DNA of 64,000 bases, taken from positions 64,001 through 128,000 of the forward strand of contig JAYZAY010000011.1 in assembly GCA_036339465.1 (NCBI GenBank), written 5' to 3'. The notes beneath the pieces were generated by a model. The model saw only the letters and a program-made list of their open reading frames with translations. It was not told the origin of the DNA and made no database searches. This DNA comes from Myxococcota bacterium. GTDB lineage: Bacteria; Myxococcota; XYA12-FULL-58-9; JABJBS01. Both the position numbers and the translations under genes were made by a program. Of this stretch, positions 44,486 through 63,763 are shown piece by piece (the first letter of the stretch is position 1; each line of letters starts with the position of its first letter).

Positions 44486-46048
44486 TTAGAATACTTTCTT
44501 GCGTTTGGAGGATGGGGCGATTCCCAACATCTCACGGTATTTTGCCACAGTTCTGCGGGCAATTTTAAGATCAAATTCTTGTAGGGCTTTGACAATTGCC
44601 TGGTCAGAAAGTGGTTTTTGTGGATTCTCATTTGTGACGAGATCTTTAATCCTGTTTCGAACTGATTCTGATGCTACCGAACTTCCTCCCTCTTTTTGAA
44701 TGGATGAATTAAAGAAATATTTTAATTCGTAGGTTCCCCTGGGGGTGTGAACGTATTTATTACTGGTAACTCTCGAAATTGTTGATTCATGCATTTCAAT
44801 GTCATCGGCGACATCTTTTAGGATTAAGGGTTTTAGGTGTTCCGGTCCGTTCTCGAAGAAGTTTTCTTGAAATTTCAAGATGCTTTCCATGACTTTATAA
44901 AGGGTACGCTGACGCATTTGTATACTACGAAGAAGCCATGAGGCACTTCGGACTTTGTCTTGCAGGTAGCTCTTGGCATCGCTGCTCAGATTTGCGCCGG
45001 TTTCATGGTAGTAGTTTGAAATTCTAAGTCGAGGAATGCCTTCCTCATTGGGGATGATAACCCAGGTGCCATTGACTTTCTTAATGTAAATATCGGGGCT
45101 GATGTATTGAGTTGTTCGGGGGTTGAAGGCTCGTCCCGGGCGAGGGTCTAGTTGCTTCAGTATTTCTAGAGTTTCACCAAGAGAGGACATCGGGCAGCCG
45201 AGTTCCTTGGCAATTTTCTTGTATTGTCGGTTTTCGAGTTCAGGAAGAAAGCGGTCGACTACTTGTATTGCGAGTGGCTCTGGTTTGGTCAGTTGGTGTA
45301 GTTGTTTCAGAAGACAATCGCGAATGCTGTAACTCGCTACGCCAATGGGATCTAGGGTCTGTATTTCGGCTACGATTAACTCAAGTTCATCTCGCGTAAT
45401 ACCGTGGACCTCAAGATCCGCCAAGAGAGTAGCAATGATGTCTTCTGGCAGGTAACCATCTTCAGTGAGCTCTTCAATGACGAGATATGAGAGTTGTTTT
45501 TCTCGCTCTGAGAGTCGATTGTGTTGAAGCTGTGCCTTAAGATGGTCGGTCAAGGATGAAGGGGCGGCAACGGTTGCCTCTAGAGACGGTGCATCTTCTA
45601 ATGAGCCCGCTCCGGCACCATTGGGTAGGCCCATACTATAAGAGTCAGCATAATTTTCCCAATCGATGTCCTGTCGCACTTCCTGTGCCGACGGCTCAGG
45701 GTTCGATTCCGTTTGGGCGGATTCTAGGGACTGCATATCCCTCAATATTTCTTGGTCTTCCCTGACTTTTCCCGTGTCGGGGCTCTCGGGGTTAAGACCC
45801 ATCATCCCGTCGTTGTCGAGCTGCGGCCGGTCAATTTCTCGGGGAAGTTCGGTGCTGAGAGGAGCATCTTCCCGACTGTCTGAATCTTGCCCTCTTTCCT
45901 CAAGTACCGGATTTTCTTCCAATTCGTGTTGAATTGCATTGGCCATTTCAAGGTGCGAGAGTTGGAGCAATTTTATAGCTTGTTGCAGCTGAGGCGTCAT
46001 GACCAGCTGTTGTGCCAGTTTTTGCTGTAGTCTTAGCTGAAGGGCCAT
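44486..46048 (-). CDS. rpoN: RNA polymerase sigma-54 factor
   Basis: QQLVMTPQLQQAIKLLQ, HESTISRV, RpoN box ARRTVAKYRE. Confidence 0.98.
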   Translation of the reverse strand: MALQLRLQQKLAQQLVMTPQLQQAIKLLQLSHLEMANAIQHELEENPVLEERGQDSDSREDAPLSTELPREIDRPQLDNDGMMGLNPESPDTGKVREDQEILRDMQSLESAQTESNPEPSAQEVRQDIDWENYADSYSMGLPNGAGAGSLEDAPSLEATVAAPSSLTDHLKAQLQHNRLSEREKQLSYLVIEELTEDGYLPEDIIATLLADLEVHGITRDELELIVAEIQTLDPIGVASYSIRDCLLKQLHQLTKPEPLAIQVVDRFLPELENRQYKKIAKELGCPMSSLGETLEILKQLDPRPGRAFNPRTTQYISPDIYIKKVNGTWVIIPNEEGIPRLRISNYYHETGANLSSDAKSYLQDKVRSASWLLRSIQMRQRTLYKVMESILKFQENFFENGPEHLKPLILKDVADDIEMHESTISRVTSNKYVHTPRGTYELKYFFNSSIQKEGGSSVASESVRNRIKDLVTNENPQKPLSDQAIVKALQEFDLKIARRTVAKYREMLGIAPSSKRKKVF

Positions 46049-46106
46049 AGTGGCATTGTATATAAATCTATGCTCAGAACCAATGAGTTGGTACGATTTT
46101 TGCTAA

Positions 46107-46859
46107 TTATCCAATTTTCATGGAAAAATCTGATCCAAGATACATCCTTTTGGCTTCAGGATGATTGATAACCGTTTCGACTTTGCCTTCCACGAGAATG
46201 CTGCCATCGGCGATAATATAGCTTCTTTCACAAATTTCTAATGTTTCTCGGACGTTATGGTCTGTGATTAAAATGCCAATATTTCTTGAGCGCATGTCCA
46301 GGATAAATTTTCGTATTTCGTTGATCGCGATGGGATCCACACCAGCAAATGGTTCGTCCAGCAGCACAATGGAGGGATTGGTCACCATCGTGCGAGCCAT
46401 CTCAAGACGTCGACGTTCTCCCCCAGAAAGTCGGCTCGCTGGGGTATGACTGACGGGTTCAAGCTGAAAGTCCTCAAGAAGCTTATCTGCAATTTTGATT
46501 GCTTCTTTACCGTTTGTTCCTGCTATTTCTGCTGCGGCTTGCAGATTTTTTTTGGTGGATAGCCCCCGAAAAACAGTGCTCTCTTGGGGAAGGTATGCCA
46601 GTCCTAAGCGGGTACGCTGGTGGAGTGGCATGCCATCAAGTTTGTTAGGGCCGAGTAAGATGGACCCTGCTTCGGGTTGCAGTAATCCTAGGACCAATCG
46701 AAAGGATGTTGTTTTTCCGGCTCCGTTGGGACCCAATAATCCGACAATTTCACCGGGGCTGACTTCGAAACTGACGTCTCGAACCACGGGACGTCTCTGA
46801 AAACTTTTGCGAAGGTTTTTGGCATGCAGCCGAGGTGTAGTGATTTGTTGTTGGGACAC
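46107..46859 (-). CDS. lptB: LPS export ABC ATPase
   Basis: GPNGAGKTT, YLPQE, LSGGERRR, DEPFAGVDPI, TDHNVRETL. Confidence 0.95.
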   Translation of the reverse strand: MSQQQITTPRLHAKNLRKSFQRRPVVRDVSFEVSPGEIVGLLGPNGAGKTTSFRLVLGLLQPEAGSILLGPNKLDGMPLHQRTRLGLAYLPQESTVFRGLSTKKNLQAAAEIAGTNGKEAIKIADKLLEDFQLEPVSHTPASRLSGGERRRLEMARTMVTNPSIVLLDEPFAGVDPIAINEIRKFILDMRSRNIGILITDHNVRETLEICERSYIIADGSILVEGKVETVINHPEAKRMYLGSDFSMKIG

Positions 46860-46864
46860 GCGGC

Positions 46865-47389
46865 TTAGCCTCGAGTATTGGGTCTTGAGGGAAGGGGGCA
46901 GAACTCGGGTAGAGGTTTTCGAGAGTCAATAAAATCAATCGGTTGTACTGAGGATGTGTCTTGGCGAATGATGATTCCTTGGGGACGCTTTACTAGGGCG
47001 TTTTCGGAATTGAGTCGCACCACAATTTCGACGCCAGTCAGCCAACTGGCGCCTCTTTTGAGCAGAGGTGCTCCAGTGAGGACGACTTTGGATTGAGCGG
47101 GATTGTGGTTCGCTTTTTCGGCCCAGACAAGTTCGTTTTTACGTTGCGCCCGAACATTTTGCATACAAATGAGTGAGTTCCAGTTCCAGTTCTCATCGGC
47201 AAAGGCTTCAAAACTATCGCAACAGAGCATCATCTTTTGAGTACGCACCACCACGTTATTGATACATTTTGCACGATGGGTTTGATTGAATATTTCCATT
47301 TGGTCACACCGAAACTCAATGGGGGCATTCTTTGGCTGGTGGGCTTGGCCTCCGATGATGCTTAGCAGTGGCAGTAAATAATGTAACAT
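46865..47389 (-). CDS. lptA: LptA/OstA-family LPS transport protein
   Basis: Signal peptide, PIEFRCDQME, beta-jellyroll pattern (VVLTGAP...LTGVEI); directly upstream of lptB. Confidence 0.7.
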   Translation of the reverse strand: MLHYLLPLLSIIGGQAHQPKNAPIEFRCDQMEIFNQTHRAKCINNVVVRTQKMMLCCDSFEAFADENWNWNSLICMQNVRAQRKNELVWAEKANHNPAQSKVVLTGAPLLKRGASWLTGVEIVVRLNSENALVKRPQGIIIRQDTSSVQPIDFIDSRKPLPEFCPLPSRPNTRG

Positions 47390-47449
47390 CCATTGTGCCT
47401 TGTGTTTGGTGCGGGGCCTAAGACAGCTAGGAGGACGCCTTCACCCTTT

Positions 47450-48463
47450 TTATTCTTTTAATCCAAAATCGCATTTCTTACCAGGGGTTGGTCTGCTCTG
47501 CGGTCGTGTTTTCCACCGGGAATGCAGCCAAACCCACTGTTCTGGGAACATGCGAATCGCTTCTTCTAAGCGTTGATTGAGGGCTGTGGTGAGTGAGAGA
47601 ATGGCTTCGTCACTCATTTCTTGGTGTTTGTATTCGAATCGCTCCAAGTGAATTTTGTATTGATTCCCAGTTCGGTGGATCCAACCCACGATGATTGGGG
47701 CTTGGGTCCTCAGTGCGAAAAGCGCTGGGGCGCTTGGGGTCCATGCTTCTTGGTTGAAAAAGGGAGAAAAAACCCCGGGTACTTTAGTGTCTTGGTCAAT
47801 CAGAAGTCCCAGGATTCGCTGCCGTTTGAATGTTCGTAGAATTTCCTTAGGGCTCGAATTGGTGCCTCGCCAAAGAACCTCCATGCCGTGACGTCCCCGC
47901 CATTGGTCCACCCAGTGGGTGAGTCGTGGATCATAGGTTGGTTTCGCAACAGAGGTAATGGGATAGCCTTCCTTAGCCAAGACTTGAGCCAGTAATTCCC
48001 ATGGTCCGATATGTCCGGTGACGGCGATGACCCCTTTCTTTTCTGCCACGGCATCATCGAGGAGTGTTCGTTGTTCTGCTGTGAGTTTAAGGGTGGGGTC
48101 TTGGGTGATGAGTTTGTCACAATGGATGGCTTCAACACTGGCCATGGCCAGGTGGACGAACATTTTTTCCACAAGTCCTCGAGCCTCGACGTTATCGCCA
48201 TTACTATAGTGGGAGCTAACTTGGGCGATGGCACGCCGCTCTTCCTTTTTGGCTATAAGTCTTGCCTGTATTCCCAGGAGTTTTGCTATTTTACGACAGA
48301 TCGGAAAGGGAATTCGTTCCAGGGCCTTAAAGAGTAGACGCAATACGATGAAAATGAGATTATTCTTGATTCGTTGTAGGGGGGGCCACGGGGGTAATTC
48401 AATGGAGGAGAAGTCTTGTGGTGTGGAATTTTGCCGCTCGGCGTCAGGTGATTGTTCAGACAT
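47450..48463 (-). CDS. Lipid A late acyltransferase (LpxL/HtrB family)
   Basis: TGHIGPWE, LIDQD, FFN, PEQWVWLHSRWK. Confidence 0.9.
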   Translation of the reverse strand: MSEQSPDAERQNSTPQDFSSIELPPWPPLQRIKNNLIFIVLRLLFKALERIPFPICRKIAKLLGIQARLIAKKEERRAIAQVSSHYSNGDNVEARGLVEKMFVHLAMASVEAIHCDKLITQDPTLKLTAEQRTLLDDAVAEKKGVIAVTGHIGPWELLAQVLAKEGYPITSVAKPTYDPRLTHWVDQWRGRHGMEVLWRGTNSSPKEILRTFKRQRILGLLIDQDTKVPGVFSPFFNQEAWTPSAPALFALRTQAPIIVGWIHRTGNQYKIHLERFEYKHQEMSDEAILSLTTALNQRLEEAIRMFPEQWVWLHSRWKTRPQSRPTPGKKCDFGLKE

Positions 48464-48469
48464 TCTGGT

Positions 48470-48991
48470 TTAGTAAGGCCATTTTCCTTGGGCACGCAAG
48501 ATTGTTTCACAACATTCTCTGGCCGCACCTTGTCCACCTTGACTTGTTAGGATCCAGTCAGCTTTTTCTTTGAGTTCGATAACAGCATCGTTTACGGCAA
48601 TTCTTAGACCAACGGCTTTAAAGGCGGCAAGGTCGATGATATCGTCTCCAACGAATGCGCTTTTCTCGGGAGAGACGTTTAGATCGCGACAGACTTGTTT
48701 GACCATCTCTTCTTTATCGTGGCATTTGCCGTGAATTGCATGGACACCGAGTTCCGAGAAACGAGCTTGAGCAATATCTATGGGCCGCCCTGAGATAATT
48801 GCGGATTTCAGACTGGCGCGATTCCAGAGGGCCAAGCCGATACCATCTTTAGCGCTAAATTTGAGCCAGCGGTCGCCGGAGTCACTATAAAAAAGTCCGC
48901 CGTCGGTGAGGACACCATCGCAATCGAAGAAGATTGCTTCGATTCTCTCTAGTTTCTCCAGGGGTGGCACTGCCAGGTTTTGTTGGTTCAT
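48470..48991 (-). CDS. kdsC: KDO 8-phosphate phosphatase
   Basis: DCDGVLTDG, KDG.G, GDDIIDL, GGQGAARE. Confidence 0.93.
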   Translation of the reverse strand: MNQQNLAVPPLEKLERIEAIFFDCDGVLTDGGLFYSDSGDRWLKFSAKDGIGLALWNRASLKSAIISGRPIDIAQARFSELGVHAIHGKCHDKEEMVKQVCRDLNVSPEKSAFVGDDIIDLAAFKAVGLRIAVNDAVIELKEKADWILTSQGGQGAARECCETILRAQGKWPY

Positions 48992-49000
48992 GATGGCTCT

Positions 49001-49821
49001 TTATGCTCTATTGGGCCGAAGGAGTTGCTCTATTTTAGATACTTCTTCAATTGTTTGCTTGAGAAGAGGAAAGTCTAAGGAGTTGGGCCCGTCGGATTTT
49101 GCCAAATCTGGCTCCGGGTGCACCTCGCAGAATAGCCCATCGATGCCGGCAGCGGTAGCGGCGCGGGCAAGGATGGGCGCCAAAGTTCTGTCCCCGCCGG
49201 TAGTGTCTTGTTGGCTGGCTGGTTTTTGGACCGAATGGGTGGCGTCAAAGATGACCGGACACTGACACCCTTCACGCATTGTCCGAAAGCCTCGCATATC
49301 GACCACGAGATTGTCGTAGCCAAAGGTGGATCCACGTTCGGTGACTGCAATATGTCTTCCACCGCCTTCTCTGAACTTATTGGTTACATGTGTCATGGCA
49401 TCTGGTGCCAGAAATTGTCCCTTTTTAATGCAAGTTGGCCGTCCTGTTTTAGCTGCGGCGAGAATGAGGTCCGTTTGTCTACACAGAAATGCGGGGATCT
49501 GGAGCACATCGACTACTTCCGCGACCATCTCGGCTTGGGATGGGCAATGAAAGTCTGTAAGCACAGGGACATTGAACTCTGTTTGGATGTGTCGGAGGAT
49601 TTCGAGCCCCTTCTGAATACCGGGACCACGGTAGGAGTTCATGGAGGTTCGGTTCGCTTTATCGAATGATGCTTTAAATATATAGGACAGGCCATACTGC
49701 GTGCATGTTTCTAAGGTAAATTCGGCAACTTTTCGGCAAGTATCTAGGGACTCAGCGACGCAGGGGCCAGCAATCAGGGTCATTTTTCGTTTTTCAAAGA
49801 GGTCCGCAACATTCGGATGCA

Positions 49822-49822
<1 letters not shown>
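49001..49822 (-). CDS. kdsA: KDO 8-phosphate synthase
   Basis: AGPCVAE, KASFDKANRTS, QIPAFLCRQTDL, DATHSVQ. Confidence 0.97.
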
Positions 49823-52192
<2,370 letters not shown>

Positions 52193-52262
52193 GATGGGAT
52201 TGGCCTATAGGAGTCATCACTGACTTTCGTCAAGAGTTAATTAAGGGTTGAGTGCAAAAGAA

Positions 52263-53132
52263 CTACACTCGTTGAATATTCCGAAGGTGTTTTAATGATT
52301 TTTGTAACTTTGAGACGACCCGACTCTCTATTTGCCGAATCCTTTCCCGCGACACGCCAAAATGTGTGCCGATGTCTTGGAGACTCATTGGGTCGTCCGT
52401 CATTAAACGATGTTTGATGATGTATTGTTCTTTTTCGTTGCAGGAGTGCGCCACTTCGGCAATTCCATCTCTGATTGCTTGGGTCTCTTGAGCTTTTCCT
52501 AGCAGACATTCTTGATCGGGAGATTCATGCTCGACCATTTCTAAGTGCGTGGTTTCATCATCGTCTCGAAGCTTAGTATCCAACGAAAAGTCACGTCCGG
52601 CCATGTATACTTCCATGGTCTCGAAATCTTCGAGGCTAACGCCTAGGGTTTCGGCCAGCTCCGCTCGTGAGATAGGCTCGCCAGGCCCAGCCAATTGTTC
52701 GGCCTTACTTTTCTCGGAGCGGATCTTAAAGAAAAGTTTTCGGCGGGCGGAAGTCATGCCTACTTTGACCATAGACCATGATTGTTGGACGAAGGTTTGT
52801 ATTTGAGCTTTGATCCACCAAACAGCATAGGAGATGAGGCGATAACCTCGGTCTGGATCAAATTTCTTGACCGCAACCATGAGGCCAATGTTGCCCTCTT
52901 GAACCAAATCCAGCATTTTCATGCCGTAGTTGCGGTATTGATGTGCTATCTTTACAACGAATCTCAAGTTCGAGATGACGAGTTTGTGAGCAGCATCTAG
53001 GTCTCCGTGGTCACGATAGGCTCTCGCAAGAGCCTGCTCTTCATCGAATGATAGAAGGGGGTATTGATTCACTTCCGCCATGTAGCTGTCGAGATTATTT
53101 TCGTGCGGGACCAATGCCATGGTTCGACTCAT
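52263..53132 (-). CDS. rpoH: RpoH (sigma-32)-family sigma factor
   Basis: SNLRFVVKIA, DLVQEGNIGLM, YAVWWIKA, RpoH box RRKLFFKIR, VSRERIRQIE. Confidence 0.88.
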   Translation of the reverse strand: MSRTMALVPHENNLDSYMAEVNQYPLLSFDEEQALARAYRDHGDLDAAHKLVISNLRFVVKIAHQYRNYGMKMLDLVQEGNIGLMVAVKKFDPDRGYRLISYAVWWIKAQIQTFVQQSWSMVKVGMTSARRKLFFKIRSEKSKAEQLAGPGEPISRAELAETLGVSLEDFETMEVYMAGRDFSLDTKLRDDDETTHLEMVEHESPDQECLLGKAQETQAIRDGIAEVAHSCNEKEQYIIKHRLMTDDPMSLQDIGTHFGVSRERIRQIESRVVSKLQKSLKHLRNIQRV

Positions 53133-53133
53133 A

Positions 53134-53541
53134 TTATTTATCCTCTTTTTTGGGGCTACCAGTGGGGTAAGCTGGTCGATTCTTCGCTAATTCTTCTAAA
53201 GTCATATCTTTTAAGAGACGTTCGATATTGGCTGAGACCCAACTGGCGGGGTGGGTCAGTCCAAGTTTCGCCTGAAACGAGCTTCCTTCTAAGGCGAGTA
53301 CGATTTCAGCAAGGCTTATTTCAAGGGGATTTTTTGCGAGTTGGTATCCACCTTGCGCCCCACGTTGAGAGATTAAAAGTCCATTTTTACTGAGGCTTTT
53401 GAGGATTTTGGCTGTTGTTGTGAGTGGTAGGCCTAATTGTAAGGCCAGGTCTCTTGCACTGAAACTGCAGGATGAGCGTTGGGTTGCTATATGCTCCAAA
53501 AGCAAGAGCCCATGGTTCGTAATTTGGGTTAGTTTTAGCAT
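53134..53541 (-). CDS. Rrf2-family transcriptional regulator lacking the Fe-S-ligand Cys cluster
   Basis: KILKSL..NGLLISQRGAQGGYQLA..P.EISLAEIV.ALEG; C-terminal region shortened and without Cys. Confidence 0.9.
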   Translation of the reverse strand: MLKLTQITNHGLLLLEHIATQRSSCSFSARDLALQLGLPLTTTAKILKSLSKNGLLISQRGAQGGYQLAKNPLEISLAEIVLALEGSSFQAKLGLTHPASWVSANIERLLKDMTLEELAKNRPAYPTGSPKKEDK

Positions 53542-53563
53542 TCCTATTTCTTTTCCTGGATTA

Positions 53564-53619
53564 ATTATGCCTAAAAATATTCCTAATACTAATGTTAAGG
53601 ACAAGCCACACACTGTCAA
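53564..53619 (-). promoter_or_regulatory. Sigma70-type promoter and imperfect palindrome (putative Rrf2 operator) for rrf2-rpoH
   Basis: Minus strand TTGACA-16 bp-TAACAT, followed by ATTAGGAAT-ATTTTT-AGGCATAAT (53564-53587). Confidence 0.5.
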
Positions 53620-53677
53620 TGTTCTAAATGTTAACTTTTAGTTCAGAGATTTAGAGCGCAAAGCCGAAAACGAGGCG

Positions 53678-55168
53678 CTAGTTTTCAGAGTCAAATGATA
53701 TCATATACTTAAGTATGTTTTGAGGGGTTTCTGCGTTGTGGCCGTCGAAACAGAATGATCTGGTTCGGCAATTTAGGCCATGTTTCAGTTCTTCACTTAG
53801 GGTCCAACGGTGGATACTGTCCACCACGCGACCGGTTAGGGTGTTTACCCGCCCGGCTTCGGTCTCGGGGGCGAGAATCAAGAAAATGCCGTCCTTATAG
53901 TAAAAAATTTCGTCGGTGGTCCGTACGGTAGAATTTATAATGTCTGCGGCTTCGGTCAGAGATGATTGAAGGATTTCGGGAGGCGGGTCTGATGAAAATT
54001 TTAGCTGAACCCCTACCAAGGAGAAGGGATGTCCATACCGTCTTGTTCTGTCGAATTCGTGTAGAAATCGTTTTCCGAAATAGGCAAAGGTTCCCGAACT
54101 TATTCTCTCTAGGGAAATGGGTAATGTGATACTGTTATAAACGGCAAATTTGGAAGGTTCATCGAATTCTAGTGGACTTTGTCTTGAGGTTTGAACGGTT
54201 CGGGTGGGAGTAAGACCATAGGCCTGGGTTGCAAAATAACGAATGGTGTCTATTTCGTTTGATTCAATGGCATTGAATCGGATTCCCATACCACTTTCCT
54301 GCTCAGCGATGCCATGTCTCACAACCTGTCCGTGAAGGAGAACCGGGAGACTTCCTCGGTTTGTTGGAACATTTGATACGAGGGATAATGTGGTACCGAT
54401 GGGCTCTGGATTTTCTGTGGTGAGGAAGATCCCCCCTTCACTTATATTCACACTTTGTTCTGTTCGAATCCCACCCGTACTGACAAATTTAACTTGTAGT
54501 TTGAGTGCCTGGCGGGGGGTGCCTCTTAGTTCATTTGATGATGATAAGGCTCTGAGGATTGAGGCAGCGGGAGAATCGATTTCAAGCGGGTCGACGATTT
54601 GCCATGCACTGTATGCGTCGGAATAACCCTTGAGCTCTAAATCGTGGACGGCATTGAGTGTAAATTCCTCGCCTAGGGCTGTGCCGGTATTTGCACAGAC
54701 CAAGGTTGAGCCAGGAGGCGCCCTATCTTGAAGTCTCGATGCGAGATTTACCGTATCTCCAACGGCGGTATAGTCTTGGTGTTGGCCAAGTTCAACGCCG
54801 CCCAACATGACATCTCCGGATGCGATTCCTACTCTAATTTGTAGCTGGATGTTGGTGTTCGATTTGATGAGTTTTTGATTGAGAGAGGTTACAGCGCGGT
54901 GCATGTCGAGTGCCGTTTGAGCAGCCGCTTTTTTTTGACTTTTAGTCGGTTTGGGGGCACCGAAGAAAGCCAAAATTCCGTCGCCGAGAAACTTGTTAAC
55001 GTTTCCCTCGTTTCCTTCGATGATTTCTGCCATTTTCTCAAGGTATTGATTAAGTACGAGCTTGAGTCGTTCTGGCCCTATTTTCTTTGACAAAGCGGTG
55101 TAGCCTTTGATGTCACTGAAAAGGATGGTGGTATAGTGCTTCTTCATTGTTTGGGGGTCAGAATTCAT
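53678..55168 (-). CDS. Soluble class III adenylate cyclase - PilZ - degenerate GGDEF fusion
   Basis: Cyclase: TILFSDIKGYT, NKFLGDGILAFFGAP, DYTAVGDTVNLASRL. PilZ: RGTPR and NISEGG. GGDEF-like: EFDRTRRY..PFSLV...VRTTDEIFYYKDGIFLILAPET. Confidence 0.85.
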   Translation of the reverse strand: MNSDPQTMKKHYTTILFSDIKGYTALSKKIGPERLKLVLNQYLEKMAEIIEGNEGNVNKFLGDGILAFFGAPKPTKSQKKAAAQTALDMHRAVTSLNQKLIKSNTNIQLQIRVGIASGDVMLGGVELGQHQDYTAVGDTVNLASRLQDRAPPGSTLVCANTGTALGEEFTLNAVHDLELKGYSDAYSAWQIVDPLEIDSPAASILRALSSSNELRGTPRQALKLQVKFVSTGGIRTEQSVNISEGGIFLTTENPEPIGTTLSLVSNVPTNRGSLPVLLHGQVVRHGIAEQESGMGIRFNAIESNEIDTIRYFATQAYGLTPTRTVQTSRQSPLEFDEPSKFAVYNSITLPISLERISSGTFAYFGKRFLHEFDRTRRYGHPFSLVGVQLKFSSDPPPEILQSSLTEAADIINSTVRTTDEIFYYKDGIFLILAPETEAGRVNTLTGRVVDSIHRWTLSEELKHGLNCRTRSFCFDGHNAETPQNILKYMISFDSEN

Positions 55169-55180
55169 AATGAAGTCATA

Positions 55181-55379
55181 TCCGATTCGGGATATGGGGG
55201 CCAGGAACTAGTGCGTGATTCTGGGCCATCGACACATCTTTAGCTGGTTGTATGCTTGCCCACTGCGTTTTCTCTTTTCTGCTTCGTGCCTTGTGGGAGC
55301 CAAGCCCTATTTGTACCCCCCACCGTGTTCGTGGCAAAGGATTCACGACGACTCATAACCCAAAGCTCCCTGAATCGGA
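55181..55379. ncRNA. Candidate ~200-nt rod-shaped structured RNA (6S-like or cis-regulatory leader)
   Basis: Five nested complementary blocks span the intergenic region around a central 18/19-nt bubble (detailed under findings). Strand not resolved. Confidence 0.45.
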
Positions 55380-55407
55380 GACCTGTTCGGTGATTTAACT
55401 TCTAAGA

Positions 55408-58400
55408 TCAAAATTGCCCGATGGATATGTGAACTTCGAATTGCCGCTCACCCAATGCACTGATTGGTTTGGGGTTGAAGCCCATGTTGAAAACCAGAGG
55501 TCCAGCGGGTGTCCGGTAGTTGATGCCGATTCCTAAGGACCAACGAAGCAGTTGTTTCGTTGGTGGGATTTTTTCGAACCATAGATTTCCTGCTTCGGCG
55601 AATAGATCGATGCCGAGATTGCCAAAGAGAGGAAGTCGCAATTCTGATTTGATCAAGCCATAGATCAATCCCCCCGGTGGGGGGCCTACGCATTCTTGAG
55701 CTTCCCCTTCACAACCCGTAGGAAATTCGTAGTCGGCCGGATAGATGGCATCATGGGAATAGCCTCGAAGGCTCGTTCTTCCCCCTAAAAAAAATCTTTC
55801 ATCGAGTGGTGGCTCTGAGTCCATTTTATGAATGTATCCCCCCCTTAGAGCAAGAGCGAGGACGGTCGTTCCGAGGGGTAAATAGGCGGAGGTTCTTCCT
55901 TCTACTTTGGTGAATGCGTAGGTGCTTTTTGGGGGGGCAGCAGTCAAATGAGCGGAGGCACTGTTTCGTTCTTCATATTGGCCTGAAGCATATTTAGCGT
56001 CGATACTCACTACAAATCCACGGGTTGGCATGAGGGGGGAATCTCTGAAGTCCAGGGTAAAACGCGGTCCTATCTTAAATCCGAGTCGACTACCGGGATT
56101 AATTCGAAGTCGTACATTCGCGTCTTGAAAAATTTCATCACTACAATCGAGAAGTTTGTCATTTTCGAAGCATTCCAGAAAGGTGGAGTTGAGCTGTGGT
56201 TCAATGGCTAGTTTGAAGCTTGGTACGGGATTGATTTCAAAGCCAAAGATGGCCGCAAAGGTTTCTAGAAAGTATGAGATTCGATTGTCTCTTTCATTGA
56301 CGAAGTCGATAAAGAACGATGGGTTTAGGGTTAGCTGTGAAAAGCTGGGGGATTTTAGTCCAATGCGCACTTGCCGTTCTAGGGCCTGAGATAGCTGGGC
56401 AGACCAACTGGTGTAGCTGTCATATTTTTCAATCATTGCGGTAGCGGCAGAACCATAAAGGTTAAAAAAGACCTGCCGATTGAGCTTAATCGAAGAAGTT
56501 AGCTGAGCTCCTTGCCTCAGGAGGTTTTGATGGCCGTAACTCAATCGCAGTCGGGGGCCATCTTCTGTGGACAGGCCACCACTCAACTGGATTTTATGAC
56601 GCGGGCGTTCAATGACTCGGACAACCAAATCTTTTCGCTCGTCGGGGATATCGGGGTCTAGAAGTCTGATTTGGACCGTAGAAAAAATGCCGGTAGCTGT
56701 AAGTCTATTTTGGTCTTCTAAGGCTTTGTTTAGGCGATAGATGTCCCCTTTTTTGAATGTTAATCGATTCCTTATAAAATTTGGGTCAGTGTGTCGGTTG
56801 CCCTGGATCAATATTTGGGTGATCCTTACGAGAGGGCCCTCCTCAATTAGGAAGGTGACATTGGTCTGTCCTGTTTCCGAGGCTTTCGTGTGGCTCCAAT
56901 TGACTTTCGCGTAGAGATAGCCTCGTTCTCGATAACGACGGACAAGATTAATCCGAGCTTCCTCAAATTTTTTGAGGGAGACAGGGGTGTTGTTTGTGAA
57001 GCTAAGTGGCTCAGTTATCCAGTTTAGAATCGTTGTAGCTGTTAGATCTTTGTTACCTCGAATTGAGATAGAGTTGAGCCGATAGCGGGTTCCCTCAGAA
57101 ACGTGAATTTCAATATCGTGCCTTTTTTTTATTTCCGTTACGTTACCCAACGTCATTTTTATGTCGAGGTACCCTGCTTCACTGTATAGATTCTCGAGGT
57201 GGCTGAGGGATTTTTTCAATTCGATGGGAACCCAGCGCTCGGTAGGGGGCAAAATGCGGGGGCTAGTATTGAGTTGAGAAAGTGGCGGTAATTTTCCCCC
57301 AGAACTGCTAATAACTTGGTCGAAAGGACTTAGTGGGTCGAGTAGTTCCTTGTTGACATGGCTACTTTTGAGTACTGTCTTAATTTCATCGATTATCTTT
57401 TCTGTTGATAAATATCGATTGCCTTGAATGGTAATATTTCCTCTTTTTTGGAGCGGACCTTCATTGATTTCGAAAAGATGGAGGATCACATTTTCTTTAG
57501 TGAGTGCTATTTGGGAGAGTTTTATTTCTGCCTTTCCGTAGCCAAGCCTTTGATAAACATCCTTGAGTATGTTTTTAAATGTTCTATTTGCCCCCGGTGT
57601 GAAGCGTTTTCTCCGGTCCGGCCAAAGTTCTTCGAGAGCCTTGGCTGATAGAATCATGTTGTTTTTGAAAATACGCTGATATCGCGCTCCCAGGTCAATG
57701 GTAAATTCGACATCACAGCGCTCTGGTTGTGGGAAAAAGAGTTTGGGTGCTCTCACTTTGGCGGTCCAATACCCCCTGCGTACGAAGAAATCTACGAGTC
57801 TTTCGCGCTCCGAATCGAGCAATGCTTGATTGAGTCTGGTTCCCTGTTTTGTTGCTATGTTTCGGAGTAAGACTTGCCTTTGTAGATCAGTGGATAGCCC
57901 TAAGAATTTTATGGATTGGATGAGACTGGGCGGCCCCTCTTCCACATTGATAATTAGGTGGCGTCCTCGTAATGACTCTTTTTGGATGACGATGTCCACT
58001 TTGGGTTGCCGAAATCCGTTGGCGTTAAGGAATCTTTCTAGATTGTTTTGGATGCGTGTGGTTGAATTGTTCTCCAAGAAACTGCCTACGCGGAGATTGA
58101 GCCTGGAACGTATGGAGGTTTCATCGAGGATACTTAAACCCTGTATGGAGATATCCTCGAGCACCAACCTGGGTTCTAGTACAAAGGTTAATTCCACGGC
58201 ACCTCCTAGGCGCTTGGCAAAGACCCGAATATTCTGGAATTTTCCTGTGCCATAGATTCGCTTGATCGCTGTTTGAATATCCTGCTCATGCAGTAGAAAG
58301 CCGGGATGAATATCGATGAGTTCTCGTAGTTGTGATGGATAGAGCTCTTCTGGAGCCACCACGTTGACCGAAAGAACCGGTTGGTTCCGGTATGGTGAAA

Positions 58401-58452
58401 GCGGATCTGAACTCATAAGGTTCAGGGATAAAATGAGCGCGAAGTATAACAT
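55408..58452 (-). CDS. Omp85-family (BamA/TamA-like) protein with multiple POTRA domains
   Basis: Repeated POTRA patterns (I.I.GN..., V.EG), barrel DFRDSPLMPTRG, FFLGG.TSLRGY, TPAGPL, terminal F. Confidence 0.88.
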   Translation of the reverse strand: MLYFALILSLNLMSSDPLSPYRNQPVLSVNVVAPEELYPSQLRELIDIHPGFLLHEQDIQTAIKRIYGTGKFQNIRVFAKRLGGAVELTFVLEPRLVLEDISIQGLSILDETSIRSRLNLRVGSFLENNSTTRIQNNLERFLNANGFRQPKVDIVIQKESLRGRHLIINVEEGPPSLIQSIKFLGLSTDLQRQVLLRNIATKQGTRLNQALLDSERERLVDFFVRRGYWTAKVRAPKLFFPQPERCDVEFTIDLGARYQRIFKNNMILSAKALEELWPDRRKRFTPGANRTFKNILKDVYQRLGYGKAEIKLSQIALTKENVILHLFEINEGPLQKRGNITIQGNRYLSTEKIIDEIKTVLKSSHVNKELLDPLSPFDQVISSSGGKLPPLSQLNTSPRILPPTERWVPIELKKSLSHLENLYSEAGYLDIKMTLGNVTEIKKRHDIEIHVSEGTRYRLNSISIRGNKDLTATTILNWITEPLSFTNNTPVSLKKFEEARINLVRRYRERGYLYAKVNWSHTKASETGQTNVTFLIEEGPLVRITQILIQGNRHTDPNFIRNRLTFKKGDIYRLNKALEDQNRLTATGIFSTVQIRLLDPDIPDERKDLVVRVIERPRHKIQLSGGLSTEDGPRLRLSYGHQNLLRQGAQLTSSIKLNRQVFFNLYGSAATAMIEKYDSYTSWSAQLSQALERQVRIGLKSPSFSQLTLNPSFFIDFVNERDNRISYFLETFAAIFGFEINPVPSFKLAIEPQLNSTFLECFENDKLLDCSDEIFQDANVRLRINPGSRLGFKIGPRFTLDFRDSPLMPTRGFVVSIDAKYASGQYEERNSASAHLTAAPPKSTYAFTKVEGRTSAYLPLGTTVLALALRGGYIHKMDSEPPLDERFFLGGRTSLRGYSHDAIYPADYEFPTGCEGEAQECVGPPPGGLIYGLIKSELRLPLFGNLGIDLFAEAGNLWFEKIPPTKQLLRWSLGIGINYRTPAGPLVFNMGFNPKPISALGERQFEVHISIGQF

Positions 58453-58474
58453 GTTGTTGTTTGCTTATTCGACG

Positions 58475-61400
58475 TTAGTCAAATTTCCAATCTAAGCGCA
58501 AATCTAAACCAAGATCTCCAATGGTTACCCGGCTTTCACTAACCCAAGTACCTTCTAGAATGACCCCCGGTTTAATATTGTATTCAAGGCTAAAGACGTG
58601 TTGTTCATCTTGTTCGTAGAGTGGTCCATTGTATTCGAGCTGCCATTTAGCGCCGAGTTCTTTTGACACTTGAATTCGTGGTTCGATACGACGACTTGTT
58701 TTGGAGTATCCACTTGTGAGTGAAAACTGGTCTACGAGGGGAAGATAGTTCTTAATCTGAGAATCCATACCCGTCACTTTCCAGAGAGCATCCATCGCTC
58801 CGGGAAGAACGCCGAGTCCCTCCCCATTTTCCCCACCGAGATTCGCAGTATTCAAGCTATCCAAACGAAGGCCAAATTGTGCACATAAGAGTGCCTCTTG
58901 GGGTTCTACGGGGCCGGAATCATCTTGTCCCGTGGCGGAAATGGTATATCGGTCGGCATCTCCCCTGACCATGACCATAAGTGAAAGTCCACAAGCCTCG
59001 GTGGTGGCGCGGAGGTCATATCGGGGGCGGATCGCATATTCGTCGATGAAGTCGACGGTAGCATGTTGCACTCTGTAGTGATTTCCGCCGAGGGTGATGT
59101 TGGCCCAAATTAGTGATGCCGAACCCAATAGACCGATCCTTTGGGTGGTTCCTGTTAAGTCAAGCTCTGCTTGAAGCTCTGACTCAATGAAATTGTTGAT
59201 GAAAATAATATTGTCATCGGCCTTTAGCTTAATGCGAAGGTTAATGGGGGCTTGTGCTTCGGATTCGATACCCTGGGATTGATTGGCGAGACCGAGAAGA
59301 TGCTTGAGGTCGATATTGGCATCGTATCGAAGTGATTGAAGTTCAATATCTCCTCGAAGCTGTAACTCATTGGATAAACCATTGAGTTGAAGTTGACCGC
59401 TGGCAACAAGATCGAGATTACTCAAGGGTTTCCAATAGACTTCGTTAATATCGAGCAGGAGGTCGAATTCAGGTTTTTGGTTGGCATGGAGAATCATATT
59501 TCCTTGGCCATTCACAATGCCATCTTTAATGTGACCAGAAAAGTTTTCAATATGAACGGTCCTTCCGCTGAATCGAAGTTCACTTTCCAATTCATTGAGT
59601 TCCAAACCAAGGGAATCTACTTTGAGGTGAGCATCGGACATGACGGCTCGTCCGGAGATGCTGGGATTGTTCAACGGTCCATCGATTTGTAGTGCAAAGT
59701 TAATGGGCGCTTTTCCTGAGCTGAGTTCGACGAGTTTAAGCAGTTCCTTAAAATCCCCTGTGCCGGAGGTTGTTAATTGGACTTGGCCATTTTCGTCCAA
59801 TGTACCACGCAAGGTCCCCCTGAGCTGACCGTTTGTGATGACGCTAGGCTCGATCGTGAGTAATTTTTCAGACAGTTGCATTCGAATGGGGCCTTCGTTT
59901 CGAAATTCCTGGTCGTGAATTTTCAGGTGGAGTTGGTTGAGTTCCGAATCGATGCCTATTTTCTCGATTTCTTCGAGAGTTCCTTGGGCGAACACGCTGC
60001 CTGAGGTGATCGCTTTGAGAGCGGGGGGCAAGGGAACAAGCTTGTTTGCGAGAATATTGATGAATGACAATGTGCCCGCGAAGCTGTAGTCGTTTTTTTG
60101 ATTGATGTTAAATTCACCCGTGAGGGTATTTTCTATAGCGGCTACCTTGAGGTTTATCTGGCCGGCGTTTGCTTCAAATGTTGCGCTTATCTTTCCGAAG
60201 TCAGCGTCGTTTAGTTTAGCGTTGTCCACACGGATGATTCCCATTCCGCTCATCATGTGGAAAAAATTTCTCATTTTGGTTTGACCTGACAAAGTGCCTT
60301 GTAATTTGGTCCCATCCAACCAAGGGTTGAAAATGGATGTGGGAACTTCTTGGGCTTTTAGGGCGAGGTCTAATTGGTTGAGTTTAGGTAGAAGTATTTT
60401 GGCTTCCAGGTTTCCGCTTCCAGGGCTGTGGGTGGTCGTCATCGCCATGATATTTCCATTTTGACGAAGCTGAATATTTCCTGTTGTTTCACCTATTTCA
60501 ACATCCCGATATTCGAGGGAGGGACTGTGAAATGATATTTGACCCTCCAGTTTTTCCAAGGGCCCGCGGAGATTGGCTTCTGCATTGACGAGTCCCTTGA
60601 GCCCCACACGCACCTCGGGAAGTAGGTCTAGGGCTTCGAGTAACTCGATACCTTCGGTTTGGTTTGTTTTGACGAAAAGTTCGGTTTGGTCGGGATGGAA
60701 AAAGTGAATGCGCCCTTTTCCTTCAAGATAGCCAAGTTTATAGCGGAGTTTTGCCCGTAGGATGTGAAGGATTTCTTTGTGGTACATTACCGTAGATGTG
60801 GTTTTTCCTAATTGGATTCCTGCAATGGCAAGGTCTTTCATCTCTACCGTACCCGAGAGAGCCAGCGATTTTAAGGGGCCCTCCAAGGTTGCAGCTATAT
60901 TGCCGAATCCCTCGTAGGAGAGGCCGGCGATGGGACCGAATCTTTTCAGGTTTACGCGTGTGCCATGGATTTGTAGTTCAGATAATTGGGGTGCGGCTAT
61001 AGCAATTGAACCGTTTACGGCGAAGGTGGCCCCTGCCATTCTAAGTTTTGTGCCTAGAAAATGAATTGATTCCCGAGACCAGCTGAATGCACCCGAGATA
61101 GCGGTGGGGGGGATGGTGATAATATGTTCGCCGTTTGATGAAATGACTGTGGGGGTGTTTAGGTTGAGTGCCACAGTGGTTCGGTGTCGTTTTTGTCTCG
61201 AGACAGGGTTTGTTTTCAAAGTACCGCTTAAAGTTGTTTCGACAGGGTAGGGAGATTCTATGCCGAAAATCGGGTAGAGTGTGCTTAGTTTTATGGTGCT
61301 TAATTCGAGATTGACCTTGAGGGAATCTAGGGGGGAATTCAGATTTGCTTGGAGGCTGGCAATGAGTTTCTTCTCTTTGTTTTGGGTCCACACGATTTTT

Positions 61401-62371
61401 TCAAGCGAGATCCTTTCAAGGGTACTCTTTCCCTTGATGACAAGATTTCCAGCTCCCAGCCCAGGCGCTTCGACTTCGTTGCCCGCAAAGTGGAAATCAG
61501 CTTCTAACTTGTCGAGAGGTCCTTTAAGATTGGTTTGATAGGATAGAGAACCTTTGAGGTCGATGTCTGTGAAGAAGTTGCAAATAGAGTAAAGATCTAA
61601 TTTTCCGTGAACACTCATGGTGAGATTTGGAGTTTGAAGGTAGGGAAACTCAAAGCTTCCAGCCAATAGAGCTTCCGATTTGTTTGTCTGCAGAACCAGG
61701 GACGGTATTGTAAATGTTGGGTAGCCGAATTCAGGATGACGACCCAGTACGAAATCCCCTTGAATTCCTATTTTTGCAATCTTACCAGTTGCAATATGCT
61801 TGATGATACCTTCTCTAATTTCCAACTCATAACTGTGTTCTGAGCCCAATGTGGAACGTGAGAGCTGGGCTGAGTTGAGTTGAATCATCACGTCTTGCTG
61901 CGTCAAATGGATGGTTACATCGAATAATTCTATATTTGGAAACTGCAGTTTCAAAAGGCCAAGCTCATCCTCATTTGTCGAATCTCTTTGGTACTTAGGT
62001 GGGGGTGGCTCTGAGTTTTCTTCAATATGGCCAAGAATTCCCCAGGCCACGACGCGAAATGGTAATTTATCTGGAGATAGGAGGTGAAAGTAATTTGGTC
62101 GGACTGAAAGAAGTCGGACCTGCCCATGGTGAAGGTCTTGGTTATCTCCAACGGGAATTTCATTAAACCGGAGGTCTCGGACTTGTAGTTCGAGTGGAAG
62201 AAATTTGAATTCAACCGAAGCTAGGGAGACATCCTGCCCGAAATGTTCTTTTAGAAGGTTGGTGGTCCAAGGGGCTAAGGTCTCTGGGGTAAAATAGACC
62301 TTGGCCAGCACGCCCATAAGGATCAGGCTTAGGGAAATTACCAGTAGGATTAATTGACCCAATCTTTTCAT
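58475..62371 (-). CDS. TamB/AsmA-like translocation and assembly protein
   Basis: N-terminal TM anchor, long beta-taco repeats (LKGPLDKL, IDGPLNNPSISG), DUF490-like C-terminus; adjacent to the Omp85 gene. Confidence 0.8.
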   Translation of the reverse strand: MKRLGQLILLVISLSLILMGVLAKVYFTPETLAPWTTNLLKEHFGQDVSLASVEFKFLPLELQVRDLRFNEIPVGDNQDLHHGQVRLLSVRPNYFHLLSPDKLPFRVVAWGILGHIEENSEPPPPKYQRDSTNEDELGLLKLQFPNIELFDVTIHLTQQDVMIQLNSAQLSRSTLGSEHSYELEIREGIIKHIATGKIAKIGIQGDFVLGRHPEFGYPTFTIPSLVLQTNKSEALLAGSFEFPYLQTPNLTMSVHGKLDLYSICNFFTDIDLKGSLSYQTNLKGPLDKLEADFHFAGNEVEAPGLGAGNLVIKGKSTLERISLEKIVWTQNKEKKLIASLQANLNSPLDSLKVNLELSTIKLSTLYPIFGIESPYPVETTLSGTLKTNPVSRQKRHRTTVALNLNTPTVISSNGEHIITIPPTAISGAFSWSRESIHFLGTKLRMAGATFAVNGSIAIAAPQLSELQIHGTRVNLKRFGPIAGLSYEGFGNIAATLEGPLKSLALSGTVEMKDLAIAGIQLGKTTSTVMYHKEILHILRAKLRYKLGYLEGKGRIHFFHPDQTELFVKTNQTEGIELLEALDLLPEVRVGLKGLVNAEANLRGPLEKLEGQISFHSPSLEYRDVEIGETTGNIQLRQNGNIMAMTTTHSPGSGNLEAKILLPKLNQLDLALKAQEVPTSIFNPWLDGTKLQGTLSGQTKMRNFFHMMSGMGIIRVDNAKLNDADFGKISATFEANAGQINLKVAAIENTLTGEFNINQKNDYSFAGTLSFINILANKLVPLPPALKAITSGSVFAQGTLEEIEKIGIDSELNQLHLKIHDQEFRNEGPIRMQLSEKLLTIEPSVITNGQLRGTLRGTLDENGQVQLTTSGTGDFKELLKLVELSSGKAPINFALQIDGPLNNPSISGRAVMSDAHLKVDSLGLELNELESELRFSGRTVHIENFSGHIKDGIVNGQGNMILHANQKPEFDLLLDINEVYWKPLSNLDLVASGQLQLNGLSNELQLRGDIELQSLRYDANIDLKHLLGLANQSQGIESEAQAPINLRIKLKADDNIIFINNFIESELQAELDLTGTTQRIGLLGSASLIWANITLGGNHYRVQHATVDFIDEYAIRPRYDLRATTEACGLSLMVMVRGDADRYTISATGQDDSGPVEPQEALLCAQFGLRLDSLNTANLGGENGEGLGVLPGAMDALWKVTGMDSQIKNYLPLVDQFSLTSGYSKTSRRIEPRIQVSKELGAKWQLEYNGPLYEQDEQHVFSLEYNIKPGVILEGTWVSESRVTIGDLGLDLRLDWKFD

Positions 62372-62428
62372 CGCCAGTTTCTCGTGAGCTAACCCATGGA
62401 TATTGAAGCATTCTCTATGGCTTAGAGG

Positions 62429-63652
62429 CTAGCATGTTGGTGGGAGGGACGTCTCCTTTTTGACGGACGCTTGAATAAAGTCAATAATTTTATGGGCCAC
62501 AGCTATTTTGGGTTGGTCGATCACCATTTGGGTCTCTCCCTCTTTGTTTAAGAGCAAGACCGTATTTGTTGCTGAGCCAAACCCCCCTTCGGGGGCAGTA
62601 ATGTCGTTGGCAACAATCAAATCGAGTCCCTTCTGGGCTAATTTTTCCCGCGCATATTTCTCCAGTTGTTCACTTTCTGCAGCAAAACCGACCATATACT
62701 GCCCCTTTTTCTGTTGAGAGAGGGTTTGGATGATGTCTGGGTTTTTTGTTAGGGCGATGGATTTCAGATTGCTTTTGCCTTTTTTCAGCTTTTGAGCCGA
62801 AGGCTGAGCCGGGCGAAAGTCTGCGGGGGCGGCGGCCATAATCACCGTGTGGACCTTGTTTAAGCGTGTTGCACAGGCTTGGAGCATCTCTTGGGTAGAA
62901 TTGACTTTAACCACTTCCTCCAGGTTGGTTGGTGTTGGCAATAGGGTGGGTCCGTGGACGAGATGCACATGGGCGCCTCGCTCGGTGGCTGCCTGGGCTA
63001 TGGCAAATCCCATTTTTCCTGAGGAGGGGTTTGAGAGAAATCTTGCCGGATCGATGGGTTCACGGGTGGGGCCGGCGGTGACGAGGATGTGTTTTTCGAT
63101 GAGGTCTTGCGGATAAAAAGCGCGACGAAAGAAATCGAGAATCACGTCGGGTTCTGGAAGTCGACCTATACCCTCTCGTCCTGATGCCAATGCTCCATTG
63201 TTGGGGTGTAAGATCTTGAAACCGCGTTTCCGAAGATTTTCCAGATTGTGGATGGTTGGGAGAGCATTCCACATCTCTGTTTCCATAGCCGGAGCGAGGC
63301 AAACGGGGTTTGGGGTACTTAAACAGAGGGCGGTTAGGGGATCTGTGGCTCGTCCCTGGGCCAGACGACTCAACAGATCGGCCGTGGTTGGGGCGATGAG
63401 GCTTGCGGTTACCCGGTGGGCGAGTTCCACGTGAGAAACTTCTCCGGATTCCGAACTGGACCAAAGATTTGTGAGGGGGCGTCGTCCAGCTAAGACGGCG
63501 ACGGAGAGTGGCGTCACGAAACGTTCTGCATTGGGGGTCATGATTGGCCAGACATTGGCCCCTTCTTCTACGAGTTTTCGGATCAAATAAAGGCTTTTGT
63601 AGGCCGCTATTCCGCCCGAAATACCAATGGCGATGTCTTTACCTTGCAGCAT
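62429..63652 (-). CDS. coaBC: Phosphopantothenoylcysteine decarboxylase/ligase
   Basis: GISGGIAAYK, APAMETEMW, TAGPTREPIDPARFLSNPSSGKMG, GFAAE. Confidence 0.96.
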   Translation of the reverse strand: MLQGKDIAIGISGGIAAYKSLYLIRKLVEEGANVWPIMTPNAERFVTPLSVAVLAGRRPLTNLWSSSESGEVSHVELAHRVTASLIAPTTADLLSRLAQGRATDPLTALCLSTPNPVCLAPAMETEMWNALPTIHNLENLRKRGFKILHPNNGALASGREGIGRLPEPDVILDFFRRAFYPQDLIEKHILVTAGPTREPIDPARFLSNPSSGKMGFAIAQAATERGAHVHLVHGPTLLPTPTNLEEVVKVNSTQEMLQACATRLNKVHTVIMAAAPADFRPAQPSAQKLKKGKSNLKSIALTKNPDIIQTLSQQKKGQYMVGFAAESEQLEKYAREKLAQKGLDLIVANDITAPEGGFGSATNTVLLLNKEGETQMVIDQPKIAVAHKIIDFIQASVKKETSLPPTC

Positions 63653-63763
63653 TACCAACCTATAGCGTATTCGTGCTGGGAGCGGTAGGGCTTGTGAGTT
63701 GTAGAATGACCCTTACTCTTGTGTGGATTGAGCACCCGAAAATGTTCTAGGAGGCTAGTGGCT

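Follow-up and report, generated by a model that had tools for sequence, protein, structure and literature searches.

The gene at 53678..55168 on the minus strand of the window, the 64-kb stretch of DNA analyzed here, encodes a soluble protein that joins a complete set of adenylate cyclase-type catalytic residues to two conserved modules predicted to bind c-di-GMP, as judged from its sequence and a fold model. We consider it rather probable that c-di-GMP directly controls the activity of the cyclase, in one direction or the other. The more specific reading that we favor, in which c-di-GMP bridges two subunits, dimerizes the protein and switches cAMP synthesis on, has in our estimate slightly less than an even chance of being correct.

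A soluble protein of three domains

The features of the protein are:

53678..55168, minus strand: whole ORF, 496 aa, cyclase - PilZ - catalytically dead GGDEF
54587..55144, minus strand: class IIIb nucleotidyl cyclase domain, aa 9-194, from PF00211 and a fold match, with D19, D63, K59, T134, N141, R145, R112 and K180
54791..54802, minus strand: beta4-beta5 hairpin (dimerization arm or tongue), aa 123-126, G-G-V-E where G-N-I-G is usual
54533..54586, minus strand: linker between cyclase and PilZ, aa 195-212, variable and of low model confidence (10% mean identity; pLDDT <50 at 197-219)
54215..54532, minus strand: PilZ domain, aa 213-318, PF07238 above and TIGR02266 below cut-off
54512-54526, minus strand: PilZ RxxxR motif, R215 and R219, 19/19 homologues
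54431-54448, minus strand: PilZ [D/N]hSxxG motif, N241-I-S243-E-G-G246, 19/19 homologues
53681..54151, minus strand: GGDEF-fold domain without active site, aa 340-496, from a profile match to DgcR and a fold match
54038..54040, minus strand: secondary I-site Arg, R377, equivalent to DgcR R163, 19/19 homologues
53912..53923, minus strand: primary I-site RxxD, R416-T-T-D419, from alignment to DgcR and its I-site mutant, 19/19 homologues
53882-53896, minus strand: K425-D-G-I-F429 at the GG[DE]EF position, from the DgcR alignment
53828-53830, minus strand: R447 at the position of DgcR R237 and PleD R390, 19/19 homologues

The true start of the 496-aa ORF is likely Met8 at 55147, which yields a protein of 489 aa; the same start is given in the public collection and the Atlas, and it agrees with the starts of homologues. 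Pfam places Guanylate_cyc (PF00211) at aa 12-184 (E 3e-23) and PilZ (PF07238) at aa 214-312 (E 4e-9, above the cut-off). Because the highest 19-residue hydropathy window reaches only 1.05, a TM anchor was ruled out, and we found no further input domain, in line with a preliminary description of this DNA that had recorded neither a TM segment nor a sensor domain. The residues named in that description (D19, K59, D63, T134, N141 and R145; R215/R219; N241-S243-G246; R416-x-x-D419) are all present and its three parts were confirmed, but it had overlooked the secondary I-site Arg and the absence of a transducer element.

The two linkers are poorly modeled (whole-protein pTM 0.43), vary in length and show 10% and 19% identity in the family alignment. 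Evidence from RNA amounted to one 247-base contig (depth 2.2, one library) that falls inside the gene, too little to show transcription. Conservation was counted over the 19 full-length rows of a 22-row alignment, from which P0035 (truncated at its N-terminus), P0037 (with a frameshift after PilZ) and P0104 (a fragment) were dropped. These 19 rows form 13 groups at 60% identity, with a lowest pairwise identity of 25%. Just past the PilZ domain the frame of P0037 shifts, through a sequencing error or because the gene is broken.

The cyclase domain retains its catalytic residues

A class III cyclase fold is supported by both the PF00211 match and structure comparison of the cyclase domain, which returned CyaB (Z 28.0, rmsd 2.2, 191 residues aligned), CyaC (Z 27.4) and Cya2 (Z 26.2). 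CyaB from P. aeruginosa (PDB 3r5g), CyaC from S. platensis (1wc1) and Cya2 from Synechocystis (2w01) share the fold at ~30% identity and have the same catalytic Asp, Asn and Arg. The metal-binding D19 and D63 and the transition-state N141 and R145 align with their counterparts in CyaB and CyaC, and the substrate residues are a Lys (K59) with a Thr (T134) replacing Asp, as in those two enzymes. An ATP-specifying Lys with Thr in the place of Asp defines class IIIb (PMC2613629). By these residues the protein is a class IIIb adenylate cyclase, and it is predicted from the retained catalytic set to make cAMP. The earlier claim of a class III cyclase with a full set of catalytic residues was borne out for all six of them.

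Throughout the family D19, K59, D63, R112, R145 and K180 are invariant (19/19) at a mean domain identity of 44%. The ATP-specifying Thr and the transition-state Asn pointed out in the preliminary description are present here, but neither is invariant: T134 is kept in 14/19 homologues and replaced in five, and N141 is kept in 17/19 and replaced in two. In close pairs the cyclase is the fastest-changing domain, with 87% identity versus 93-96% for the others. For the one orthologue pair that allowed dS to be calculated in all three domains, dN/dS was 0.045 in the cyclase, 0.010 in PilZ and 0.020 in GGDEF, ratios that are rough with dS near or at saturation.

That the cyclase domain is instead a scaffold with weak activity or none, or produces a different cyclic nucleotide, with the protein serving mainly as a c-di-GMP receptor, we judge quite improbable. 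A Gly lost from the hairpin in 18/18 domains, the replacement of T134 and N141 in some members and the long branches of the cyclase tree would fit such a protein, but six catalytic and substrate residues held in 19/19 homologues at 44% mean domain identity, the pairing of K59 with T134 as in the ATP-specifying pair of CyaB and CyaC, and the cyclase dN/dS of 0.045 argue against it.

The usual input channel is missing

The cyclase domain starts at the N-terminus and leaves no space for a coiled coil or a cyclase transducer element, with 11-23 residues ahead of the first Asp in the family. A transducer-like motif before the cyclase was found in 0/17 family proteins, versus 18/18 of the sensor-bearing cyclase-PilZ relatives that were parsed (19 tried). 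The protein has no N-terminal sensor, coiled coil or transducer element. Additionally, the G-x-h-G motif of the hairpin, present in Cya2, CyaB and CyaC and in 24/25 other cyclase-PilZ domains, occurs in 0/18 family domains.

The transducer element touches the beta4-beta5 tongue and regulates activity (PMC5995499, in part), and the beta4-beta5 arm is vital for the oligomeric state (PMC4174876, in part). Since the transducer contacts the hairpin, it makes sense that the element and the Gly motif of the hairpin are both missing from the family: the protein would be without the usual input channel and the site where this docks, while the catalytic residues remain. CyaB, CyaC and Cya2, unlike this protein, keep the hairpin Gly, and Cya2 places a CHASE2 sensor and a transducer element before its cyclase, whereas the protein has neither and carries its regulatory domains at the C-terminal side. 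As a counterpoint, the lost Gly could weaken catalysis instead of making it conditional.

The PilZ domain is a predicted c-di-GMP receptor

Following the definition of the PilZ c-di-GMP motifs (10.1101/814665, in part), we found R215, R219, S243 and G246 in 19/19 homologues and either N or D at position 241 in all of them. The canonical receptor motif set is present in 19/19, which upholds the earlier statement that both motifs are intact, and the domain is predicted on this basis to be a c-di-GMP receptor. The whole-protein model gives six strands and a helix over aa 225-316 (pLDDT 65-83). Searching structures by sequence with only the PilZ domain gave no PilZ structure, and none appeared in the fold search topped by CyaB. 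Four further invariant PilZ residues, P268, G272, P275 and T308, are unaccounted for by the contacts known to c-di-GMP and could belong to an interface.

The C-terminal domain is a dead GGDEF domain with a complete I-site

Pfam gave no match of its own for the C-terminal domain, and its weak GGDEF match falls on the cyclase domain. The C-terminal third alone yielded weak NCBIfam DGC matches (E 0.009-0.06), and a profile of six family members matched DgcR at E 8.5e-11. Comparison of an AF2 model of aa 340-496 (pLDDT 90.5) with 48,161 chains placed GGDEF domains at all of ranks 1-34 (top Z 17.1, rmsd 2.6, 143 residues aligned); the first non-GGDEF fold appeared at rank 35 (Z 8.3), and a Foldseek list for the domain was GGDEF throughout. 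On this model the C-terminal domain is a GGDEF domain, the fold on which the preliminary description had staked its proposal.

The GG[DE]EF motif occurs in 0/19 homologues and the substrate loop is unconserved, ruling out an active DGC. The domain does not show the active-DGC pattern (RxGG[DE]EF, the first metal Asp and KxxNDxxGHxxGD), and an invariant Y423 stands in place of the motif Arg. The active site had been described as replaced by YKDGI; the replacement is real, but the aligned residues, K425-D-G-I-F429, lie one residue later.

Alignment to DgcR, in which the offset from a 20-residue tag was fixed by the two positions changed in the DgcR I-site mutant, equates R377 with R163, R416 with R206, D419 with D209 and R447 with R237. 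All four residues are found in 19/19 homologues, including the R416/D419 of the RTTD I-site that had been noted earlier, and the RxxD lies five residues ahead of the GGDEF position. In DgcR, a c-di-GMP dimer cross-links R206xxD209 in one subunit to R163 in its partner, R237 corresponds to PleD R390, and the I-site cross-link inhibits the enzyme in both DgcR and PleD (PMC8041772, in part). With 17 of 137 GGDEF columns invariant, invariance of all four pre-named I-site columns has p about 2e-4, a rough value for columns that are not independent. As a baseline, among the nine GG[DE]EF domains of the same genome all four I-site residues occur in 4/9 and RxxD in 8/9. The frequency of I-site residues in ordinary DGCs is a counterpoint to the favored reading; the site is common in this organism, and what is informative is its retention while the active site was lost. 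With its I-site set complete, including the Arg of the cross-link, the dead GGDEF domain is a predicted c-di-GMP receptor.

Y423, R440 and T443 (within aa 423-447, 53830-53902, minus strand) are likewise invariant, unexplained by the I-site, and may mark an interface; R440 and T443 are variable among the ordinary DGCs of the genome.

Some deltaproteobacteria make cGAMP by means of Hypr GGDEF enzymes, and the motifs are no proof of specificity. Nevertheless, each motif set is of the canonical c-di-GMP type and ordinary DGC and PDE domains are encoded in the genome, and we regard 3'3'-cGAMP or another nucleotide as a highly improbable ligand in place of c-di-GMP.

The gene was found in one taxonomic family among the related genomes searched

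Of 2209 candidates in a search with aa 200-496, nine proteins were returned: the product of the gene itself and eight more, each of these eight with PF00211, PF07238 and PF00990. Ten full-length members stood at the top of the best 150 hits in a profile search of 1.84 billion representatives. Within 41 related genomes, the PilZ and dead-GGDEF part was found in 5/5 others of the same taxonomic family (one cut by a contig end), 0/16 others of the order and 0/19 others of the phylum. Similarly, among 401 genomes of the phylum, with five candidates scored per genome, 6/6 genomes of the family matched at E 1e-102 or better and the gene was not found in the 395 others, where the best match reached 1e-27 in PilZ only and there was one weak wider match (G262). 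The gene resembles a core gene that its family has retained by vertical descent. Source labels of the relatives are mostly Myxococcota or else Deltaproteobacteria, with one Bdellovibrionales; the divergent members P0008, P0009 and P0033-P0038 come without taxon or gene context.

A single-sequence scan of a collection of genome contigs detected no relative among 120 candidate stretches. An alignment-based scan gave six loci, four of them true relatives; L020 and L021, weak partial matches, were set aside.

Cyclase-PilZ fusions are widespread

We scanned the 38 of the best 150 representatives whose match extended past the cyclase and found PilZ in 35, including 15 with the order CHASE2-cyclase-PilZ and two with GAF-cyclase-PilZ. 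Family HMMs run on 147 proteins located PilZ in 26 that are not family members, with RxxxR in 26/26 and, by a lenient pattern, [DN]xSxxG in 25/26. Atlas clusters holding both a cyclase and PilZ have 1156, 76 and 73 members, with scores of 0.89 that make them leads only. Judged by these domain matches, the two-domain fusion is widespread. The preliminary description had named no characterized example of the architecture; the cyclase-PilZ pair is not unique to this gene, and what sets the protein apart is the third domain and the absent sensor and transducer. Similar to the protein studied here, the uncharacterized fusions (CHASE2-bearing, GAF-bearing and sensor-less) have a cyclase followed by PilZ with intact motifs, whereas those with a sensor retain the hairpin Gly and the transducer element, and most of the fusions have no third domain.

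Two of the 26 proteins outside the family, P0039 and P0043, are membrane-sensor forms of about 1000 aa with the order CHASE2-cyclase-PilZ-dead GGDEF. P0039 aligns collinearly with the family across 485 columns and retains the RxxD and the Args, and P0043 has lost the RxxD Arg. P0044 is unsupported as a third such form by either the family HMM or hhalign, its 'GG' label in the tree having been given by appearance only.

In an unrooted tree, and also in a quick 85-row tree, the family forms one side of a branch with 100/100 support, nearest the CHASE2 forms. Its grouping with P0039, P0043 and P0044 is neither shown nor rejected in the unrooted tree (p-AU 0.39). Tandem-cyclase proteins were dropped from the first tree and P0140 from the second. 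It is likely from these trees, which lack a root and whose rows were chosen for their similarity to the family, that the sensor was lost in the family's ancestry.

Gene neighborhood

The conserved neighbors are:

55408..58452, minus strand: upstream BamA/Omp85-POTRA gene, without sign of a functional link
53134..53541, minus strand: downstream Rrf2-family regulator

Among 11 loci, of which some belong to close kin, the gene follows bamA in 9/9 with upstream DNA and precedes rrf2 in 10/10 with downstream DNA. A sigma70-like promoter match (10/12) for rrf2 at 53592-53619 is one of six such matches versus 3.0 expected. An operon that functionally joins the gene to rrf2 and rpoH is unsupported, as rrf2 has its own promoter match, and rrf2 is probably not part of the cyclase system. 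The rrf2 ORF (53134-53619, minus strand) has a nominal TTG start at 53619 that coincides with the first hexamer of the promoter match, and homologues start at Met 53541.

A Cys triad is characteristic of IscR and NsrR; the Rrf2 protein has a single Cys and so lacks it. The rrf2 gene abuts an RpoH-like sigma gene (52263-53132), a pairing that recurs in one further family (L070). None of 23 rpoH-like loci outside the family has the gene beside it; the context in the order differs, making the insertion site untraceable. This region belongs to a housekeeping run at 44486-63658 (minus strand) that is largely kept in L016. Pfam supports tamB, bamA, rrf2, the sigma factor and lptA in the run, and with the remaining names presumed we take it to be coaBC-tamB-bamA-[cyclase gene]-rrf2-rpoH-kdsB-pyrG-kdsA-kdsC-lpxL-lptA-lptB-rpoN.

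These neighbors bear on the idea that c-di-GMP positions the enzyme or recruits a partner while its catalytic rate is unaltered. A c-di-GMP receptor reportedly acts as a localization module in PopA and SgmT. The invariant surface residues outside the I-site (Y423, R440 and T443; P268, G272, P275 and T308 in PilZ), of which R440 and T443 vary in the ordinary DGCs of the genome, hint at a protein partner, and CdgA of Bdellovibrio, a receptor with a dead GGDEF domain, is found at the cell pole (PMC3271064, in part). However, no partner gene travels with the cyclase gene, the neighbors being housekeeping genes and an rrf2 with its own promoter match, and the presence of the secondary Arg suggests a cross-link that joins two subunits. 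We regard localization as unlikely.

The c-di-GMP and cAMP networks of the genome

Domain matches in the genome comprise 12 GGDEF, 2 EAL, 4 HD_5, 21 PilZ, 15 cyclase and 24 cNMP, with nine GG[DE]EF domains. Two proteins of the same genome, a cNMP-EAL (L044:594-1850, minus strand) and a cNMP-GGDEF (L045:507-1478, plus strand), have intact catalytic motifs; a full-length match to the former was found in 3/5 genomes of the family, and the latter form in 1/5. Bd1971, the cNMP-EAL protein of Bdellovibrio, is a cAMP-activated c-di-GMP phosphodiesterase (PMC6717892, in part). The cNMP-EAL and cNMP-GGDEF proteins could close a feedback loop, possibly but not universally.

At L046:456-2682 (plus strand) the gene for a PP2C-cNMP phosphatase overlaps the beginning of one for an FHA-GGDEF protein, the latter presumably of DgcB-like architecture, and the pair is a possible link from cAMP through phosphothreonine to c-di-GMP. 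A Crp/Fnr-type protein with a cNMP domain, encoded in the window at 25878-26585 (minus strand), is a possible cAMP effector. CRP-box-like sites are not enriched, with 86 found versus 128 expected in the genome and none in the 64-kb window, and therefore we drew no cAMP regulon.

Discussion

Because the protein has no sensor, transducer or other input domain and keeps its receptor motifs, c-di-GMP is its only visible input. The preliminary description had proposed two c-di-GMP inputs and one cAMP output in a single polypeptide, a reading that is partly supported, with strong comparative evidence: both motif sets in 19/19 homologues, GG[DE]EF in 0/19, low dN/dS in all three domains and no other input domain.

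The mechanism that we favor would begin with a cyclase that, as its sequence indicates, keeps its catalytic residues, lacks the sensor, coiled coil and transducer, and has a changed hairpin motif. To this would be joined, as judged by motifs and the fold model, a PilZ and a dead GGDEF domain with full c-di-GMP motif sets, including the Arg of the cross-link. By analogy with DgcR and PleD, dimeric c-di-GMP would bridge R416, D419 and R447 of one subunit to R377 of the other. The bridge would serve as a ligand-dependent tether that allows the cyclase to form its active head-to-tail dimer; a tether is suggested rather than a rigid lever because the linkers are long and variable. The PilZ domain, which adjoins the cyclase, may provide a second and possibly threshold-setting site. 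The cAMP produced would be read by the cNMP proteins of the genome, and through a Bd1971-like cNMP-EAL protein it may exert negative feedback on c-di-GMP.

That the same cross-link inhibits DgcR and PleD counts against activation. In a default-active enzyme, c-di-GMP would bind but inhibit, with the cross-linked GGDEF or the liganded PilZ domains holding the cyclase halves in a non-productive arrangement. Inhibition by domain cross-linking through the same four residues in DgcR and PleD (PMC8041772, in part) is consistent with this, as are the negative effects of c-di-GMP on cAMP described in section 7 of a 2024 review (PMC11139211). Nonetheless, long and variable linkers would transmit a rigid lock poorly, and without a transducer helix and with a changed arm a default dimer would have less holding it together. 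We consider inhibition somewhat unlikely.

Activation by a c-di-GMP bridge can be carried further, although we hold this extension only tentatively and with more doubt than belief. The protein would be a dedicated c-di-GMP-to-cAMP converter that shed its sensor and transducer and turned the feedback site of a DGC into an on-switch, with PilZ setting a second threshold and a cAMP-activated EAL protein closing an allosteric negative-feedback loop able to pulse both messengers. It would then be the minimal and soluble representative of a cyclase-PilZ class that is widespread and unstudied.

The C-terminal domain shares with DgcR (L. biflexa, PDB 6ZXM) and PleD the GGDEF fold, with the RxxD, the third Arg and the secondary Arg at the DgcR positions. 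DgcR and PleD are active DGCs in which the cross-link gives feedback inhibition, whereas in our protein the GGDEF active site has been lost and another enzyme provides the output. PopA and SgmT, which we take to have a degenerate GGDEF motif with RxxD, resemble the C-terminal domain. The same is true of CdgA/Bd3125 (PMC3271064, in part) and PelD (PDB 4dmz; Z 11.3), in which the motif is degenerate and the RxxD is kept. Unlike the protein studied here, no fusion to PilZ or to a cAMP cyclase was seen among CdgA, PelD, PopA and SgmT. Bd1971 likewise links cAMP and c-di-GMP allosterically in one polypeptide, and its architecture recurs in this genome; it runs from cAMP to c-di-GMP breakdown (PMC6717892, in part), whereas our protein would run from c-di-GMP to cAMP synthesis.

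Cross-talk of c-di-GMP with cAMP, as described in section 7 of PMC11139211, is mostly transcriptional. In the literature covered, mostly titles and the starts of abstracts with few subscription papers, we found no c-di-GMP-binding adenylate cyclase and no paper on the uncharacterized cyclase-PilZ fusions. The word 'cyclase' is absent from the main text of a PilZ survey (10.1101/814665), as is 'adenylate' from the parts of PMC3271064 and PMC12943098 examined. The domains are all known and the two-domain fusion appears common; it is for the three-domain form that we found no earlier description.

With 489 aa and neither a membrane anchor nor another input domain, the protein is an easily tested member of the cyclase-PilZ class. 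If the favored reading is true, it would be usable at once as a biosensor for c-di-GMP, read out through cAMP-CRP, and would show an inhibitory I-site put to new use in a different enzyme, and it would add an undescribed direct link from c-di-GMP to cAMP, the reverse of the Bd1971 arrow.
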